Assembly: GCA_050996715.1 (NCBI GenBank)
Contig: JBPCRP010000025.1
Span: 8,032 to 72,031 of the forward strand
From: Propionibacteriaceae bacterium
GTDB taxonomy: Bacteria; Actinomycetota; Actinomycetes; Propionibacteriales; Propionibacteriaceae
Length of the DNA stretch: 64,000 nucleotides
Reading direction: 5' to 3'
Shown piece after piece: positions 7,864 to 43,352 of this stretch (positions are counted from its first letter, which is position 1; the number at the start of each line of letters is the position of its first letter). Position numbers and translations under genes: made by a program. The notes beneath the pieces were generated by a model. That model did not search any database and was not told where the DNA came from. It was given only the letters and a program-made list of their open reading frames with translations.

Positions 7864-9401
7864 CCCGTCGTGGACCTGAGGTCGCGCGGACGGGGTCCGG
7901 CCAGCCGGTCGTCGTCATCGGGGCCGGTCTGGCGGGGCTCGCCGCCGCCTGTCATCTGCAGGGCGCCGGCTACCAGGTGACCGTGGTCGAGCGGGAGTCG
8001 ATCCCCGGCGGCCGGGCGGGTCGCTTCGAGGACGCCGGCTTCGCCTTCGACACCGGGCCGACCGTGATGACCATGCCAGATCTGGTCTCCGAGGCGCTGC
8101 GGGCCGTCGGGGCCGAGCTGTCCGACGTGCTGCCGATGACCCAGCTCGACCCGGCCTACCGCGCCTGCTTCGCCGACGGCTCCACGATCATGGTCCGTTC
8201 GGGCCACGAGGCGATGCGCGCCGAGATCGAGAAGACCTGCGGCAGCGTCGATGCCGCGGCTTTCGACGAGTTCGTGATCTGGCTGCGTCGGCTCTACCTC
8301 GCCGAGATGCCGCACTTCATCGACCACAACTTCGACTCGCCGCTGGGTCTGCTGCACAAGCCGACCGCGGCGGCGACGCTGCTGCGGCTCGGGGCATTCG
8401 GTCGGCTCGGGAACGCGGTCCGCCGCCGGTTTACCGACCCGCGGCTGCACCGACTGTTCTCCTTCCAGGCCATGTACGCGGGGCTGGCCCCCGACGACGC
8501 CCTCTCGCTCTACGCCGTGATCACCTACATGGACTCGATCAACGGCGTCTACTTTCCCGTCGGCGGCATGCACGCCATCCCGACGGCGATGGCCCTGGCG
8601 GCGGAGAAGGCCGGAGTCGAGTTCCGCTACGGCGAGACGGCGAGTGAGATCCTCCGGCGGCCGCCGAGCTCGGGGACCGGCGGGGTGGCCGGGGTCCGGC
8701 TGCTGGGCGGTGAACAGCTGCGCGCCGACGCCGTGGTCTGCACGCTCGACCTGCCGATCGCCTACGACAAGCTGCTACCCGACCTGAAGCCGCCGCGTGC
8801 GCTCGTCTCCGGTGACTACTCGCCGTCGTGCGTGGTCTGGCACGTCGGGGTCCGCGGACCGCTGGCGCCGGAGGCCGCGCACCACAACATCCACTTCGGT
8901 ACGGCGTGGGGCGAGGCGTTCGACGACCTGCTGAAGCGGGGCGCCCTGATGCGGGACCCCTCGCGGCTGGTGACGATCCCCTCGATCGACGAGCCGTCAC
9001 TGGCTCCGGAGGGCGGATCGACCCTCTTTGTGCTGGAGCCGACGCCGAACCTCTCGAGGTCCCCGGCGCGGGGTGGGCTGGACTGGAAGGCCGAGGCCGG
9101 CCCGATGCGCGACCGGCTGCACACCTTCCTCGGCGCGCAGGGCTATCCCACCGAGGTGGTGACCGAGCGCCTGGTCACCCCACTGGAGTGGCAGGCTGAC
9201 GGCATGGCTCAAGGCACTCCGTTCGCCCTCGCGCACACCTTTGCCCAGACGGGACCGTTCCGGCCCAAGAACGTGGAGCGGCGGGTGCCCGGGATGGTCT
9301 TCGCCGGGTCGAACACCACACCCGGGGTGGGCGTACCGATGGTGCTGATCTCGGGCAAGCTCGCCGCCGCCCGGGTCAGCGACTACCTGGGCGCCCGATG
9401 A
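7860..9401 (+). CDS. crtI: phytoene desaturase
   Basis: N-terminal FAD fold VVVIGAGLAGLAAACHL, 513 aa. A GTGA overlap joins it to the crtE stop. Confidence 0.85.
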   Translation: MTRRGPEVARTGSGQPVVVIGAGLAGLAAACHLQGAGYQVTVVERESIPGGRAGRFEDAGFAFDTGPTVMTMPDLVSEALRAVGAELSDVLPMTQLDPAYRACFADGSTIMVRSGHEAMRAEIEKTCGSVDAAAFDEFVIWLRRLYLAEMPHFIDHNFDSPLGLLHKPTAAATLLRLGAFGRLGNAVRRRFTDPRLHRLFSFQAMYAGLAPDDALSLYAVITYMDSINGVYFPVGGMHAIPTAMALAAEKAGVEFRYGETASEILRRPPSSGTGGVAGVRLLGGEQLRADAVVCTLDLPIAYDKLLPDLKPPRALVSGDYSPSCVVWHVGVRGPLAPEAAHHNIHFGTAWGEAFDDLLKRGALMRDPSRLVTIPSIDEPSLAPEGGSTLFVLEPTPNLSRSPARGGLDWKAEAGPMRDRLHTFLGAQGYPTEVVTERLVTPLEWQADGMAQGTPFALAHTFAQTGPFRPKNVERRVPGMVFAGSNTTPGVGVPMVLISGKLAAARVSDYLGAR

Positions 9402-37681: not shown

Positions 37682-38659
37682 TCAGGACTGGCCGTTGAAG
37701 AGGCTGGTCACCGAACCGTCTTCGAACACCTCGTGGATGGCGCGGGCGATCAGCGGGGCAATCGAGAGCACGGTCAGCTTGGCGAAGCGACGCTCCGGCG
37801 GGATGGGCAGCGTGTTGGTCACGATGACTTCCTCGAAGGCCGACGCGGTCAACCGCTCCACTGCGGGCCCGGAGAGCACCGGGTGGGTGGCGGCCGCGAC
37901 GACCTTTTTGGCCCCTCGCGACATCAGCGCCTCGGCGGCCTGGCAGACCGTGCCGGCGGTGTCGATCATGTCGTCGACGAGCAGGCAGACCCGGCCCTCG
38001 ACGTCACCGACGACCTCGTGCACCGCGACCGTGTTGGCCACGTTGGGGTCGCGACGCTTGTGGATGATCGCCAGCTGGGTGCCGAGCCGGTCGGTCCACA
38101 TGTCGGCCAGCCGGACCCGACCCGCGTCCGGGCTGACCACGGTCATCTCAGAGGTGTCGTAGTTGGCCTGCACGTAGTTGGCCATCAGCGGGAGCGCCCA
38201 CAGGTGATCGACCGGTCCGTCGAAGAACCCCTGGATCTGAGCGGCGTGCAGGTCGACCGACATCAGTCGATTCGCCCCCGCGGTCTTGAACAGGTCGGCG
38301 ACCAGCCGGGCCGAGATCGGCTCCCGACCGGCGTGCTTCTTGTCCTGACGCGCGTAGGGATAGAACGGCGCCACCACCGTGATCCGCTTGGCCGACGCCC
38401 GCTTCAGCGCGTCGACCATGATCAGCTGCTCCATGATCCACTCGTTCACCGGCGCCGCGTGACTCTGGATCACGAACGCGTCGCAACCGCGGACCGACTC
38501 CTCGAAACGGACGTAGATCTCGGAGTTGGCGTAGTTCAGCGCCCGGGTGGGGACGATGCCGACGTCCATCAGGTCGGCGATCTCCTGGGTCAGCTCGGGG
38601 TAGGCCCGACCGCTGAACAGCATCAGGTACTTGCTGTTGGGACGTTTGACCGCAGTCAT
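37682..38659 (-). CDS. prs: ribose-phosphate pyrophosphokinase
   Basis: PYARQDKK, VSPDAGRV and DDMIDTAGT motifs. 325 aa. Confidence 0.95.
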   Translation of the reverse strand: MTAVKRPNSKYLMLFSGRAYPELTQEIADLMDVGIVPTRALNYANSEIYVRFEESVRGCDAFVIQSHAAPVNEWIMEQLIMVDALKRASAKRITVVAPFYPYARQDKKHAGREPISARLVADLFKTAGANRLMSVDLHAAQIQGFFDGPVDHLWALPLMANYVQANYDTSEMTVVSPDAGRVRLADMWTDRLGTQLAIIHKRRDPNVANTVAVHEVVGDVEGRVCLLVDDMIDTAGTVCQAAEALMSRGAKKVVAAATHPVLSGPAVERLTASAFEEVIVTNTLPIPPERRFAKLTVLSIAPLIARAIHEVFEDGSVTSLFNGQS

Positions 38660-40233
38660 GACTGCTCGCTCTCGATCTGTCGATCATGGTGCTGCTGATC
38701 ATGCCGGGCCCGTTCGTGCTGGGCCTGCTCCGGTCGGGCCTGCTCCTGTCGGGCCTGCTCCTGTCGGGCCTGCTCCTGCTGGGCCTGCTCGGCCGCCGCG
38801 GCGGTCTTGGTGCCAGCTCGCTTGCGGGCGACCCAACCGCGGACGTTGCGTTGGCTGCCGCGGGCCACGGCCAGCTCGCCGGCGCCGACGGGCATGGTGA
38901 TGGTCGAGCCGGCCGCGACGTACGCGCCGTCGGCCACCTCGCACGGCGCCACCAGGGTCGAGTCGCTGCCGACGAAGGAGTAGCGGCCCACGTGGGTCGA
39001 GCTCTTGGTGACGCCGTCGTAGTTGGCGAAGATCACCCCGGCGCCGATATTGGCACCCTCGTCGATCACCGCGTCACCGGCGTAGGTGAGGTGTGGGACT
39101 TTCGCCCCCGGTCCGATCCGGGCGTTCTTGGTCTCCACGAAGGTGCCGATCTTGCCCTGGGCCCCCACCGTTGTGCCCGGCCGGAGGGAGGCGTACGGCC
39201 CGACGCTGGCCCCCGCGCCGATCACGGCGAGCACCGCCTGGGTCCGGACGACCGACGCGCCCTCCCCCACCTCGGTGTCGACCAGGGTGACCTCGGGGCC
39301 GATCGTCGCGCCGGCCGCGATCGAGGTCGCACCCTCCAGGAACGTCCCGGGGCGCAGGGTGACGTCGGTGCCGAGGTCGACGGTGCGGTGGATCCAGGTG
39401 GTGCTCGGGTCCTCGATGCTCACCCCGGCTCGCATCCACCCCGCGCAGATTCGCCGGTTCAGCTCCCCCGCCACGGCCTGCAGCTGCACCCGGTCGTTGA
39501 CACCCTCGATCTGCCAGTGGTCCGGGGTGACGTGGGCGTGGACGACGAGCCCTTGCGACCGGGCGTATTCGACGACGTCGGTGAGGTAGAGCTCGCCGCT
39601 CGGGCCGTTCGGGGCCAGCCGGGTGAGAGCCTCGCTCAGCAGGTCGGCGTCGAAGGCGATCACGCCGGAGTTGATCTCCCGGCCGGCCCGCTGCACCGGG
39701 TCCGCGTCGCGGTGCTCCACGATGCCCTGGATCGCCCCGGTGGCGTCCCGGACGATCCGGCCGTACCCCGTCGGGTCGACCACCTCGGCGCTCAGGACCG
39801 TGACCGCGGCCCCGGCCTCTCGGTGGGCGTTCAGGAGCGCGACCACGGTGTCCCCCGTCAGCAGCGGTACGTCGCCGAGGGTGACCAGCACGTCGCCGCT
39901 GAGCTCGCCCAGCTCCTCGAGCGCGCACCGGACGGCGTACCCAGTGCCGTATGCCGCATCCCCCTGGGTGACCGGCTGCACGTGCGGCGCGATCTCGCTC
40001 AGGTGCGCCACGACCTGCTCGCGCTGGTGGCCGACGACCACGGCGATCCGGGTCGACTCGACCGCGGCCGCAGCGTCGATCGCGTGGCTGAGCAGCGAGT
40101 GCCCGGCGATCTTGTGCAGCACCTTGGCCCGGGTCGACCGCATTCGGGTGCCCTCCCCGGCGGCCAGCACGATCACGGCGGCGACACCACGACCCGGTTC
40201 AGTCGGCGCGGCGGACTCGGGCGTGGACGACAC
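38656..40233 (-). CDS. glmU: bifunctional UDP-N-acetylglucosamine pyrophosphorylase / glucosamine-1-phosphate N-acetyltransferase with repeat-containing C-terminal tail
   Basis: VLAAGEGTRMRS, left-handed beta-helix hexapeptide repeats, then a Q/E/A/R tail. An ATGA overlap joins it to prs. Confidence 0.9.
   Translation of the reverse strand: MSSTPESAAPTEPGRGVAAVIVLAAGEGTRMRSTRAKVLHKIAGHSLLSHAIDAAAAVESTRIAVVVGHQREQVVAHLSEIAPHVQPVTQGDAAYGTGYAVRCALEELGELSGDVLVTLGDVPLLTGDTVVALLNAHREAGAAVTVLSAEVVDPTGYGRIVRDATGAIQGIVEHRDADPVQRAGREINSGVIAFDADLLSEALTRLAPNGPSGELYLTDVVEYARSQGLVVHAHVTPDHWQIEGVNDRVQLQAVAGELNRRICAGWMRAGVSIEDPSTTWIHRTVDLGTDVTLRPGTFLEGATSIAAGATIGPEVTLVDTEVGEGASVVRTQAVLAVIGAGASVGPYASLRPGTTVGAQGKIGTFVETKNARIGPGAKVPHLTYAGDAVIDEGANIGAGVIFANYDGVTKSSTHVGRYSFVGSDSTLVAPCEVADGAYVAAGSTITMPVGAGELAVARGSQRNVRGWVARKRAGTKTAAAAEQAQQEQARQEQARQEQARPEQAQHERARHDQQHHDRQIESEQS
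38721..38795. repeat. 15-bp tandem repeat (about 5 units) encoding (QEQAR)n in the GlmU tail
   Basis: GGGCCTGCTCC(G/T)GTC-type units on the + strand. In frame (5 aa per unit). Confidence 0.9.
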
Positions 40234-41145: not shown

Positions 41146-42213
41146 TCAGCGGTGGGCCGGACCCTCCCCGAAGGGGAACCGGGTCGCCGCGACCTGGACG
41201 TGGGTGAGGCTGACTTCGGTGGCGTCCTCCTCCCAGGCGACCTGCAGGGCGGTGTGGGCGAGCTGCAGCGGGAGCCGGATGTTGCCGTCCGAGCCGAGGT
41301 AGCGGTCCCAGATCGCGGCCAGGGCGGGCTCGGTGAGGACGACCGCGACCGCGGCGGGATCGGGCTCGACGAGGCTGCCGCTCACCCGTTCGGCGAGGAT
41401 CCGGGTCAGCGCGGCCTGGTCGGGCAGGGCGGGGACGGCGACGGCGGTGGTCAGCGCCCCGGTGTCACGGGGGAAGTCTGCGCGCTCCAGGTAGTGGTCG
41501 TGAACGGCCACCATCCAGCCGCCGCCGACCTCGGAGACCAAGGTGGGCAACACGTGGGCGAAGAACGGCCCGATCAGCGAGGTGCGGTCGCCGACCGGCG
41601 TCTCGAGCCAGGCGTCGCTGTCGTCGAGCACGATCACCGGCTGCCCACCGCGGCCCGAGACCACCGCCAGCAGGTGCTGCAGGGTGCCGATGATCTCTGA
41701 CGTGCTCGGCTCCGCACGGACGGTCAGCACGCTCTCGACCTCGGCCGCCGCGTCGCCGACCAACAACCAGCGCGGCAGCCCGACGCCGTAGTGGTGGCGT
41801 TCTCGACGCTCGCGCGTGACGGGGGCGGCCACGGCAGCGACCGCCCGGGACCGGTCCTCGGCCGACATCGACTGCGCGGTCTGCGCCTGCCGGAGCAGCA
41901 GGGCGATCATGTGCGCGGCGAACCGGCCGACGTCGCGGACCAGCTCATCGGCCTCGGCCGCAACCGGGATCCGCAGGTCGGCCACCGCGTCGGCGAGCTG
42001 GTCGAGGCAATAGGTGATCATGCTCGACTTGCCCATGCCGCTGCGTCCGGTAACCGCGGCCCGACCACCGTCGCGCATCTCGCGGACGAGCACCGCCTCG
42101 GCGGTCGCGGTGCCGGTGAGCTCGTCGAACGGCACGTGCAGCAGCCCCAACCCCGGCCGGACGGGTCGGGCGTCGAAGACCTGCGCGGCCACCAGCTCAC
42201 CGAGATCGATCAT
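41146..42213 (-). CDS. Orc1/Cdc6-like AAA+ P-loop ATPase, no DNA-binding domain recognised
   Basis: Walker A GRSGMGKSS, Walker B PVIVLDDSD, and a lid-like SDGNIRLPLQLAHTALQVAWEEDATEVSLTHVQVA. Confidence 0.65.
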   Translation of the reverse strand: MIDLGELVAAQVFDARPVRPGLGLLHVPFDELTGTATAEAVLVREMRDGGRAAVTGRSGMGKSSMITYCLDQLADAVADLRIPVAAEADELVRDVGRFAAHMIALLLRQAQTAQSMSAEDRSRAVAAVAAPVTRERRERHHYGVGLPRWLLVGDAAAEVESVLTVRAEPSTSEIIGTLQHLLAVVSGRGGQPVIVLDDSDAWLETPVGDRTSLIGPFFAHVLPTLVSEVGGGWMVAVHDHYLERADFPRDTGALTTAVAVPALPDQAALTRILAERVSGSLVEPDPAAVAVVLTEPALAAIWDRYLGSDGNIRLPLQLAHTALQVAWEEDATEVSLTHVQVAATRFPFGEGPAHR

Positions 42214-42297
42214 GGGTGGTCTACCACCGTCGGGGGCCGGCTCATGGCTTCAGCCTGGCAGACGCCACCCACAGAACCGGCCCACCGGATCGGTGGG

Positions 42298-43239
42298 TCA
42301 CAGCACCGGGTCGACCACCGCGTACACCTTGCGGGGTCGTCCGGTGCCCGAGGCCAGCTCGGAGGAGGTCACCAGCCGGGCGTCCTCGAGCTTGCGCAGC
42401 ATCCGGGTGGCGTGCGGACGCGTCCAGCCGAGCCGGTCGAGCAGTCGCTGGTCGCTCGCGCTCGCCCCGCCCAGCTGCTGCAGCTCGGCGGCGAGCTCCA
42501 CCGCCGGACGGCCACCGACCTCCTCGAGCCGGGTGCGGAGCTCACTGCGCATCGCCGCCAGTGAGCCGACGAGCTCGGGCCGGGCCAGCGCCGTCCGGGC
42601 GGTGTCGAGCAGGGCGCGGGGTTGCCGGGCGGCGGCGGCGGCCACCACCTCGTCGAGGAGCACACCGGGCAGCTCGTCGGCCCCGGCGGCCCGGGTCTTG
42701 AGCAGCAACCTCGACGCCTCGGCGGTGAGCTCGGGCAGATTCACGACCCGCTCGAAGAAGGCGTTGGCCGGGGGCAGCAGCAGGGTGGCCCGCTCGTCGT
42801 CGCGGGCGGTGACCACCCAGCGCAGCGGGGTCGTCCACAGCTCGTCGCGCAGCCGACCGAAGAGCTGGTGGGTCTGCGCGGCCTCGGGCAGCCCGTCGAG
42901 GACCACCACCGGACGATCCGGTACGGCCCGGAGCCGGTCGATGCCGCTCCGCGGGTCGTCGGTGGGGTCGAGCTCGAGACCGGTCAGCACCCGTCGGAGC
43001 ACCCCGGCCGCCGATCCCGCCGCTCGGCCGTCGACGAACACGCAGCGCACGTCGGCCCGGCGCCACTGCCGCTGCAGCTGTCGGACCAGCGACGTCGTCC
43101 CGGAGCCGCTCGGCCCGATCACCGCCACGTTGAGGCCGTGCCGGACCGCGGCATCGACCTGCTCCCGCTCGGTCTCCCGGTCGGTGAACAGCTCCGCGTC
43201 AGCGTTGTTGTCGAGCAGCGGGCGTCCGGTCCAGTTCAT
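42298..43239 (-). CDS. AAA+/Orc1-Cdc6-like protein with deviant Walker A and C-terminal winged helix
   Basis: FTDRETEREQV...VAVIGPSGSGTTSL (Lys replaced by Thr), Walker B VVVLDGLPE, and C-terminal wHTH LLDRLGWTRPHATRMLRKLEDARLV...GRPRKVY. Confidence 0.65.
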   Translation of the reverse strand: MNWTGRPLLDNNADAELFTDRETEREQVDAAVRHGLNVAVIGPSGSGTTSLVRQLQRQWRRADVRCVFVDGRAAGSAAGVLRRVLTGLELDPTDDPRSGIDRLRAVPDRPVVVLDGLPEAAQTHQLFGRLRDELWTTPLRWVVTARDDERATLLLPPANAFFERVVNLPELTAEASRLLLKTRAAGADELPGVLLDEVVAAAAARQPRALLDTARTALARPELVGSLAAMRSELRTRLEEVGGRPAVELAAELQQLGGASASDQRLLDRLGWTRPHATRMLRKLEDARLVTSSELASGTGRPRKVYAVVDPVL

Positions 43240-43268
43240 GCACTGATTGTACTGTACGTTTAGTGCAT
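43238..43268. promoter_or_regulatory. AT-rich 31-bp quasi-palindrome plus TACAAT -10 box at the start of the AAA+ operon
   Basis: ATGCACTGATTGTACTGTACGTTTAGTGCAT is symmetric at 22 of 31 positions. On the minus strand TACAAT (43246-43251) ends 6 nt before ATG 43239, and no SD is present. Confidence 0.5.
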
Positions 43269-43352
43269 GGACGTGGAGGAGTCCCTGCGATGAGCTGAGG
43301 GCCCACGGACGGTCAGTATCGCTGACCGTTCAGACTTATCCCAGGAGGACCC

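Follow-up and report, generated by a model that had tools for sequence, protein, structure and literature searches.

Paired ORC/Cdc6-like AAA+ genes with a promoter-overlapping dyad form a conserved operon of Actinomycetota and a possible conflict or addiction-type module

The A-B gene pair

The subject of this study is a pair of adjacent minus-strand genes, here called A and B, in a 64,000-nucleotide stretch of contig JBPCRP010000025.1 from a Propionibacteriaceae bacterium (assembly GCA_050996715.1, positions 8,032 to 72,031). This whole stretch, referred to as the window, has a base composition of ~71% GC and is actinobacterial-type sequence. An earlier reading of its letters (the original prediction) described two open reading frames (ORFs) lying 84 nt apart, and their coordinates, lengths and quoted motifs are all as described there (Table 1). 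Gene A carries the entry FTDRETEREQV, a Walker A that reads GPSGSGTTS and a Walker B that reads VVVLDG. In gene B, the Walker A is GRSGMGKSS, the Walker B is VIVLDDSD and the lid reads SDGNIRLPLQLAHTALQVA...VSLTHVQVA. The pair and its relatives constitute a conserved operon that has a single promoter-overlapping dyad, is under purifying selection and encodes paralogous ORC/Cdc6-like proteins with catalytic asymmetry. The module is self-contained and conserved, and it is unnamed in Pfam, NCBIfam and PADLOC.

Table 1. Features of the A-B locus and its surroundings in the window (AF2, AlphaFold2; dN/dS, ratio of non-synonymous to synonymous substitution rates)
Feature	Coordinates	Strand	Description	Basis
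Gene A	42298..43239	(-)	313 aa, ORC/Cdc6-like AAA+, C-terminal winged helix	ORF reading, AF2, Foldseek, family alignment, dN/dS
Gene B	41146..42213	(-)	355 aa, ORC/Cdc6-like AAA+ ATPase without winged helix-turn-helix	ORF reading, AF2, Foldseek, family alignment, dN/dS
AT-rich element abutting A start codon	43240..43266	(-)	GCACTAAACGTACAGTACAATCAGTGC-ATG, 27 nt; sole conserved stretch of the otherwise diverged intergenic region in L086 and L088	
-10-like hexamer	43246-43251		TACAAT, 6 nt from the A ATG	
A-B spacer	42214..42297	(-)	84 nt, clade-specific	read from sequence
Stem-loop in spacer	42281-42297		CCCACCG-atc-CGGTGGG, GC-rich, directly after the A stop codon	
Inverted repeat	43309-43329		ACGGTCAG-cgata-CTGACCGT, perfect, 8 bp, in the divergent A/glyoxalase intergenic region	
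glmU ORF	38656..40233	(-)		
Tail of GlmU	38656-38760		C-terminal, low-complexity, QEQAR-like repeats (…AEQAQQEQARQEQARQEQARPEQAQHERARH…)	

Folds, paralogy and library matches

AF2 models built from the family alignments had a predicted local distance difference test score (pLDDT) of 88 for each protein and predicted template modelling scores (pTM) of 0.76 for A and 0.87 for B. When compared with the Protein Data Bank (PDB) using Foldseek, the A model was closest to the Sulfolobus Cdc6/Orc1 chains 2qby_B/A (E 1.5e-10), and its top 16 matches were all Cdc6/Orc1/ORC chains (E 1.5e-10 to 5e-8). The best match of B was 2qby_A (E 7e-7); Drosophila Orc1 came next, and Orc4 was also among the matches. 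Nucleotide-binding leucine-rich repeat proteins (NLRs, including plant NLRs for A), RuvB, HslU, TnsC and MuB were found at lower ranks, below ORC/Cdc6. The Orc1/Cdc6-like assignment in the original prediction holds by fold, as 2qby chains are the best matches of both proteins and eukaryotic Orc1/Cdc6 come next. The predicted models place A and B in the ORC/Cdc6 clade, though both fall below the curated sequence thresholds for Orc1/Cdc6 initiators: B reached 23.8 bits against TIGR02928 (orc1/cdc6; cutoff 181.3), over the lid only, and A reached 13.1 bits against PRK00411 (cutoff 417). When profiles were searched against PDB sequences, most matches covered the P-loop only (RecA, dynein, ABC transporters), and 2qby_A was the sole full-length match, a weak one (E 6e-4).

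The C-terminus of the A model is a helix-turn-helix followed by a beta-hairpin (residues 264-308; helices 264-286, hairpin 290-308; pLDDT 83-96). This confident model and weak Pfam matches to MarR and PadR, with TrmB also among the weak matches, bear out the winged helix that had been proposed for this end of A. The B chain ends after its lid, which carries a sensor-2-like NIR, and it has no winged helix-turn-helix (wHTH). The B model has a six-helix insertion of ~100 aa after beta-2 (residues ~89-187) and the A model has helices between beta-2 and Walker B (residues 71-104), both of them candidate equivalents of the canonical initiator-specific motif. Profile-profile comparison of A and B (hhalign probability 96%, E 3.5e-9, Walker B through lid) identifies them as distant paralogues, in agreement with the original prediction.

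No named family or defence system claims the pair, which is also how it had first been described. Protein A passed the Pfam cutoffs for AAA_22 (30.7 bits, cutoff 27), NACHT (29.9, cutoff 26.7) and nSTAND1 (29.7, cutoff 27.1), all overlapping within residues 12-183. Protein B was just under the AAA_16 cutoff and sub-threshold for nSTAND1 (19.5 bits) and AAA_22. In PADLOC-DB v2.0.0, mad8 was the only match of A (E 8e-5, residues 20-86, the P-loop) and a Type I specificity subunit the only match of B (E 7e-4, a short stretch). PF24389 matched relatives in the P-loop stretch only (P0010, 24.1 bits against a cutoff of 27; P0046, 35.2 bits over 17 residues). Identity with a named family was rejected on these grounds, since Pfam, NCBIfam and PADLOC return nothing beyond generic P-loop, AAA_16, AAA_22, NACHT, nSTAND1 and partial mad8 matches. 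No description was found in the literature, whether for the pair, for the accessions of its plasmid-borne relatives (see below) or for PF24389, and the six new actinobacterial systems of bioRxiv 2025.01.08.631966 are unrelated to A-B.

Conservation and distribution of the operon

Relatives of A number in the hundreds at 35-46% identity, and the B family comprises 678 clusters at 50% identity with a uniform length near 350 aa; lengths are uniform throughout the family (~330-350 aa). In 185,579 genomes, each the representative of one species, 219 relatives were detected. The hosts of these relatives are nearly all Actinomycetota, among them Solirubrobacterales, Acidimicrobiia, Mycobacteriales including Rhodococcus, Nakamurella, Frankiaceae and Gaiellaceae.

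We fetched 80 reference-genome loci, most of them ascertained through A. A B-type ORF lies directly downstream of A in ~72 of the 80, typically with a 4-nt overlap, and A is likewise found upstream in the contexts that were reached from the B side, including independent metagenome contigs. The original prediction had named a failure of the homologues to co-occur as a conserved pair as grounds for its rejection; A and B do co-occur as such a pair. Eight loci are without B in the adjacent position, and five of these are contigs that end right after A. The remaining three (L020, L064 and L083, with A at ~8000-9050) hold an orphan A that retains the upstream dyad described below, and neither tblastn nor a six-frame hidden Markov model search detected a B remnant in them. 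Since orphan A and dyad occur there with no trace of B, these loci suggest that A is able to persist alone as a DNA-binding protein.

Catalytic asymmetry and selection

The pairing of a catalytically dead A with a live B, as originally proposed, stands as a family-wide tendency, but the asymmetry is not absolute and the substitution on which it was based is clade-specific. In the window, the Walker A Lys48 of A is replaced by Thr (GSGTTS), a change confined to three genomes (the window and its two closest relatives, at 86-88% identity). Of 206 A sequences, 184 have K at this position, 13 have R, 5 T, 3 S and one V, and the 22 copies that have lost the Lys belong to several sub-groups. No acid is conserved at the position that follows the Walker B Asp, where 77 copies have D, 63 G, 23 E, 21 S, 11 N and 6 H. 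In contrast, among 222 B sequences the Walker A Lys is present in all 212 aligned copies (the other 10 are N-terminally truncated fragments), and the Walker B DD[ST]D as well as H238, Y241, R276 and R313 are essentially invariant. Because conservation of the Walker motifs differs in this way, the nucleotide site of A appears to be under relaxed catalytic constraint throughout the family, whereas that of B is not.

Both genes are under purifying selection, with dN/dS of 0.14-0.18 for A and 0.11 for B, compared with 0.10, 0.12 and 0.20 for the flanking ispE, TetR and MarR genes. This selection and the recurrence of the pair in so many independent loci are far beyond chance. Pseudogenisation of A through K48T was ruled out by its dN/dS and by retention of the change in three genomes.

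A dyad at the promoter of A

A dyad is located at a fixed distance before A, a new observation that was not part of the original prediction. Across the family, the ~35 nt before the A start codon have a GC content of 0.3-0.45, as against 0.6-0.7 just upstream. The dyad is AT-rich and ~29 bp long, with the consensus CTAAC-N4-CTTAC-N-GTAAG-N4-GTTAG, and it is centred 14.5-18.5 nt upstream of the start codon. At least 11 of its 14 arm positions pair in 42% of loci but in only 2% of control windows. Over 1.2 Mb, a profile of the dyad matched once in each locus and in every case at the A promoter, and this includes loci outside the training set of the profile.

Promoter-like hexamers coincide with the dyad. 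In 39 of 60 loci, a TAnnnT box is found 5-8 nt ahead of the start codon, compared with 0.4% of random positions and 9% of composition-matched shuffles, and 19 of the 60 have a TTG 16-19 nt further upstream (0.6% of shuffles). A Shine-Dalgarno-like motif was seen in one of the 60. With a strict sigma-70 scan, one locus (L006) gave TTGTCT-18-TATAGT, ending 6 nt before the ATG. The geometry of these hexamers indicates a putative leaderless transcript for the A operon, with a core promoter embedded in the dyad; the ~29 bp would then span the -35 to -10 region of this predicted promoter.

Variants of the operator co-vary with the recognition helix and wing of A. TAGC-N-GCTA cores are paired with a G[VW]SRQRA[QA]QV recognition helix and CTAAC-N-GT[AT]A[AG] cores with a GGRQK/GGRRK wing (GR-QK in L028), while the unique GTAC-A-GTAC core of the window is paired with an equally unique RPHATRML helix. 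Based on these patterns, we predict that A binds the dyad and autorepresses the operon. In the window, the element abutting A (Table 1) includes a -10-like hexamer and an imperfect dyad, and it is probably a diverged local version of the family operator/promoter dyad.

The perfect inverted repeat further upstream (ACGGTCAG-N5-CTGACCGT), to which the original prediction had pointed as a candidate binding site, is not conserved in the nearest relatives. It was rejected as a conserved site because it is absent from both of them (L086 and L088). As a candidate operator, the repeat may serve not A but the glyoxalase/MFS side or one of the MarR and TetR regulators nearby.

Rare effector fusions of B

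Some rare B homologues carry additional domains. P0268 combines B with a CAP12/PCTIR TIR domain (E 1e-21) at its C-terminus. The gene before it, which it overlaps by 4 nt, encodes a true A (hhalign 100%; Walker A GIGLTS), and P0268 adjoins HsdM and DUF5131. In P0278, B is joined to an alpha/beta-hydrolase, and an A-type gene lies upstream. P0128 has an N-terminal trypsin-like protease (Trypsin_2) and a B portion that is 42% identical to B of the window; its locus has no A and a divergent HTH_17 gene instead. The dyad is present at the B-TIR and B-hydrolase loci and absent at the A-less trypsin-B locus. The frequency of fusions is poorly sampled, because a word-indexed protein search with the B alignment returned only nine proteins.

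Genomic neighbourhoods and mobile elements

All-against-all clustering of the ORFs within +/-8 kb in 86 loci revealed no conserved third gene or effector. The recurrent neighbours are genes of sub-clade synteny (AP endonuclease, glucose-6-phosphate dehydrogenase, thiolase, SGNH hydrolase), an integrase that recurs in ~7 independent loci and, in R. fascians, a RES-like ORF. The observation that no nuclease, transposase or replication gene accompanies the pair in the window extends to the family, none being conserved beside it in these loci. Integrases or transposases account for ~6 of 135 neighbouring genes, and the few defence genes are a Type I HsdR, MADS-like genes and PDC candidates.

These data bear directly on a first alternative, namely that A and B are transposition-target or helper ATPases of the TniB/TnsC/MuB/IstB type, part of a transposon or left behind by one. 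Some features lean towards it: A is above the Pfam AAA_22 cutoff and B matches AAA_22 below threshold, TnsC and MuB are among the lower-ranked Foldseek matches, and a Mu-transposase C-terminal domain was found in two of the 135 neighbouring genes. However, unlike those ATPases, A-B has no transposase partner, either conserved in the clustered loci or flanking it in the window, where its immediate neighbours are the TetR and glyoxalase genes. Furthermore, both proteins match ORC/Cdc6 structures better than TnsC and MuB, A has an ORC-style C-terminal wHTH, and inheritance in the window lineage is vertical. The absence of an associated transposase or element ends effectively refutes this explanation, which we regard as hardly credible.

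A minority of loci lie in defence or mobile contexts. In one (L012), a full-length Type I HsdR gene (PADLOC REase_I, E 0; L012:4306-7905, plus strand) is located immediately upstream of A, and the genes flanking the pair in L003-L005 encode a tyrosine integrase and a Schlafen/AlbA_2 (SLFN) protein (e.g. L003:5659-7554, minus strand). In a metagenome-assembled genome of Solirubrobacteraceae, B adjoins a 798-aa ORF (L081:3087-5483, minus strand) that matches PADLOC mad3 (E 6e-73) and mad8 (E 2e-33) and probably represents two MADS-like genes read as one. The lone PADLOC match of A is itself to the mad8 P-loop, so weakly that a distant link between A and Mad8 may exist at most. On a metagenomic contig, an RVT_1 reverse transcriptase gene (494 aa; L094:3525-5009, minus strand) and an HTH_17 excisionase-like gene flank A-B; the enzyme may belong to a group II intron or a retron, or may be a defence-associated reverse transcriptase.

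No relatives were found in 50,697 INPHARED phage genomes or in IMG/VR. Among 72,556 plasmids, the pair occurs on one, pFiD188, the linear virulence plasmid of Rhodococcus fascians D188 (L089, NC_021080.1 38666-43469), and a phage or plasmid origin was rejected on these counts. The plasmid proteins, WP_015586100 and WP_015586101, are annotated as 'ATPase AAA' and 'ATP-binding protein'; the Walker A of this A reads GTGRTS, and the dyad is present. Directly upstream of the pair on pFiD188 are a hypothetical gene and a gene for a RES-family NAD+ phosphorylase, a Phd/YefM-RelE/ParE pair lies ~2 kb away, and Lsr2 and TetR genes follow downstream. This neighbourhood looks like a cluster of maintenance modules.

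The plasmid copy is relevant to another alternative, in which the pair acts purely as a toxin-antitoxin (TA)-like addiction module: B would be a toxic ATPase and A a DNA-binding antitoxin and autorepressor, stabilising a replicon or region with no immune function. Like type II TA systems and regulator-controlled defence operons, A-B is translationally coupled, encodes the DNA-binding product first and the enzyme second, has a palindromic operator over its promoter and is patchily distributed. On pFiD188, it adjoins TA modules, following immediately after the RES toxin module and lying near Phd/RelE. Orphan A is tolerated, and in six contexts reached through B-family proteins no B of typical length lacks A, the trypsin fusion being the sole A-less B. 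This asymmetry between orphans comes from small numbers, however, and from loci ascertained mostly through A. Moreover, A and B are paralogous AAA+ proteins that greatly exceed typical TA components in size, the putative DNA-binding subunit contains a nucleotide-binding domain as well, and a single plasmid among those searched carries the pair. The architecture and operator are compatible with a type II TA system, with toxicity and neutralisation putative, and we consider addiction as the whole function improbable.

A further possibility is that the pair initiates the replication of a mobile or integrated element, or partitions it, with A as an Orc1-like initiator or centromere-binding adaptor at the dyad and B as a loader or motor ATPase. 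The best structural match, the Sulfolobus Orc1-1/Orc1-3 heterodimer on origin DNA (2qby), is in its favour. As in the archaeal Orc1/Cdc6 proteins, A combines an AAA+ base, a lid and a C-terminal winged helix, the lid motif GNPR/NIR of the pair resembles GDAR, two paralogues would act together and the gene lies beside a presumed DNA site, as at archaeal origins and in parC-parMR-type cassettes. An integrase adjoins the pair in the ~7 loci noted above, and the plasmid that carries it, pFiD188, is linear. Against this, sequence similarity to archaeal Orc1/Cdc6 is marginal by the TIGR02928 and 2qby_A scores given above, the hosts are bacteria that use DnaA and have no MCM partner, and B lacks a wHTH. 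The features expected of an initiator, arrays of origin recognition boxes and a helicase partner, are lacking as well: each locus has one dyad with no repeat array, coinciding with the promoter hexamers, and genes for a replicative helicase, a primase, a transposase or other functions of mobile elements are not conserved beside the pair in the 86 loci. The absence from the phage collections searched, the near absence from plasmids, the stable syntenic site within housekeeping genes and the TIR, protease and hydrolase fusions fit this explanation poorly, making it very unlikely.

The window copy and its surroundings

In the window, one flank of the pair holds genes for Pth, ribosomal L25, Prs, GlmU and a TetR regulator (Pfam), and the other holds genes for a glyoxalase, an MFS transporter and a MarR regulator, followed by IspE and RsmA. 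The pair is found at the same syntenic site in GCA_019695475.1. Synonymous divergence (dS) from the L086 genome is 0.39-0.43 for A and B and 0.31-0.39 for the flanking genes; the other two comparisons of A, which involve L088, gave 0.48 and 0.61. With synteny and with dS equal to that of the flanks, recent horizontal acquisition is not supported. The pair had been placed in an accessory block within a housekeeping neighbourhood, and accessory-type genes do flank it between conserved housekeeping genes, but it has been inherited vertically at this site.

Most family members have the 4-nt A/B overlap, as opposed to the 84-nt spacer of the window clade (73 nt in L086 as called there, with an earlier B start). 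The spacer contains a GC-rich stem-loop (Table 1), and its 3′ end, right before the B ATG, reads GGTGGtagaCCACC. Stem-loop and GGTGGtagaCCACC could be a candidate intercistronic attenuator or serve in translational control. The window copy is an intact, selectively maintained and atypical member of the family, as seen in K48T, the long spacer and the diverged operator. Elsewhere in the window, the C-terminal tail of GlmU is an extension unusual for this protein, and its opposite strand reads as GPAPV repeats.

Discussion

Our preferred reading, to which we give about an even chance, is that A-B is an autorepressed, ATP-driven conflict or addiction-type module. It is encoded across Actinomycetota as an operon, usually with the 4-nt overlap and with no third conserved partner. 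A, probably as a dimer, would bind the ~29-bp dyad through its winged helix and repress its own leaderless operon, and dyad-bound A would hold the complex at a single chromosomal site. The nucleotide site of A would be non-catalytic or dispensable and have a regulatory role, while B would be the catalytically competent ATPase. The two are predicted to interact, possibly forming an ORC-like hetero-oligomer, with the degenerate A holding B in check or in position. The role would lie in phage or plasmid defence, abortive infection or TA-like addiction, with a trigger that frees or activates B and an ATP-dependent assembly of B that delivers the output. In the rare variants, this output would be the fused TIR, trypsin-like protease or alpha/beta-hydrolase domain. 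For the minimal form, the output might be an action of B on DNA by way of its large insertion of helices, the consumption of ATP or the work of an unlinked partner.

The assignment to conflict systems is inferred from the rare fusions, which also lend support to the 'sensor/effector' idea of the original prediction. Swapping of TIR, protease and hydrolase domains on an NTPase is a hallmark of NTPase-centred conflict systems, such as those with STAND, CBASS and Pycsar effectors. Effector-domain swapping on Orc/Cdc6 proteins in particular is discussed in PMC10853773. A-B is best read as belonging among the ORC/Cdc6-STAND-type NTPase conflict systems, from which its split degenerate/active pair and conserved self-operator would distinguish it.

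Several observations weigh against this reading. Effector fusions are uncommon, with two among the 150 best B representatives and one further case, no effector can be recognised in the minimal pair, and no PADLOC model matches beyond the partial mad8 P-loop (E 8e-5). Most genes next to the pair have housekeeping or metabolic roles; by raw count, those of mobile elements or defence make up ~6-10%, and the defence-context signal is weaker than for typical defence-island residents. The strict sigma-70 consensus scan gave no match in the window, in L011 or in L089. The window element is diverged, has weak dyad symmetry and is undetected by the family profile; because the profile misses it, its homology to the dyad is read from its position and from partial similarity of the left half-site (e.g. 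to L029). The dyad itself could be an RNA hairpin and not a protein-binding site. Finally, stable vertical inheritance in the window lineage suits a cellular regulatory role equally well.

Such a role is the substance of the remaining alternative, a cellular ATP-dependent transcriptional switch with no part in conflict. Here A would be a nucleotide-gated repressor that B remodels or recycles on a physiological signal such as stress or DNA damage, and the output would be gene expression only. An autoregulatory dyad overlapping the promoter, a housekeeping setting, purifying selection like that on flanking genes and a minimal pair with no effector domain would all be expected of a switch of this kind. 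Sulfolobus Orc1-2 is a damage-responsive regulator. Precedents for Orc1/Cdc6 homologues in this capacity are described in PMC10123103. However, the operator profile finds one site per locus, the promoter of the pair itself, so that no regulon is visible within ~16 kb per locus. The fusions of B to TIR, protease and hydrolase domains are also hard to reconcile with pure regulation, and the distribution is patchy (219 matches in the species-representative scan). We judge the switch to be unlikely, though a serious contender.

Returning to a conflict or addiction-type module, the nearest described thing to A-B, compared here by its description, is a class mentioned in one sentence of PMC10853773 (NAR 2024). 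According to this sentence, an active Orc/Cdc6 protein, often fused to TIR, STAND or pentapeptide repeats, occurs with a second copy whose Walker A is intact and whose Walker B is disrupted, together with a KAP NTPase; the sentence itself gives the class no name and no experiment. Measured against it, A-B likewise joins an active and a degenerate paralogue in one operon, most A copies have an intact Walker A (Lys in 184 of 206) and a Walker B without the catalytic acid, with the window copy additionally lacking the Lys, and one A-B variant carries a TIR fusion on the active copy. In contrast to the class as described there, no KAP NTPase is conserved with A-B or found among the recurrent flanking Pfam families, fusions are rare and not frequent, and the degenerate copy carries a wHTH and an operator.

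The BrxC/BrxB proteins of BREX, and the PglW iSTAND, provide a similar arrangement, in which an active ORC/Cdc6-type ATPase acts with an inactive STAND/ORC-like partner and DNA is bound through a wHTH (PMC12839542). BrxC, however, is 1200-1300 aa long with additional domains, its wHTH is on the active subunit and not on the degenerate one as in A-B, and BREX needs the PglX methyltransferase and PglZ, neither of which is present with A-B. No PADLOC BREX model matches A or B. The comparison with STAND sensors (NACHT, NB-ARC, Avs, bNACHT) is mixed: A passes the Pfam NACHT and nSTAND1 cutoffs over its P-loop core and B stays below that for nSTAND1, plant NLRs are among the Foldseek matches of A, and relatives of A-B swap effectors (TIR, protease). 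These sensors are single large multidomain proteins, whereas A-B is split into two proteins of ~330 aa (313 and 355 aa) that end with the lid or wHTH and carry neither C-terminal repeats nor a sensor domain. Additionally, ORC/Cdc6 structures outrank NLRs, and A-B has a wHTH and a putative sequence-specific operator.

A more radical version of the preferred reading holds that the minimal pair is already complete, an effector-less ORC-like machine, made up of one degenerate and one active ATPase and parked on one dyad, that, when triggered, acts directly on DNA, with the fusions as later add-ons. It might, for instance, assemble on, or remodel, invading or replicating DNA in an ATP-dependent manner through the insertion of B, and would constitute a new mechanistic class of immunity or addiction in Actinomycetota, derived from parts of a replication initiator. 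We hold this version to be doubtful.

If the preferred reading is correct, at least 219 of 185,579 species-representative genomes, nearly all of them Actinomycetota, would carry a compact, unnamed conflict or addiction module built from replication-initiator-type ATPases, and not from nucleases or classic STAND sensors. The defence repertoire of Actinomycetota is poorly charted. The pair would serve as a minimal model for the recurring theme of a degenerate and an active ORC/Cdc6 paralogue seen in BREX and related systems, and its dyad, which co-varies with the recognition helix, offers a clean, testable cis element for regulation by an inactive/active AAA+ pair. The copy on the virulence plasmid pFiD188 of Rhodococcus fascians provides a cultivable entry point.

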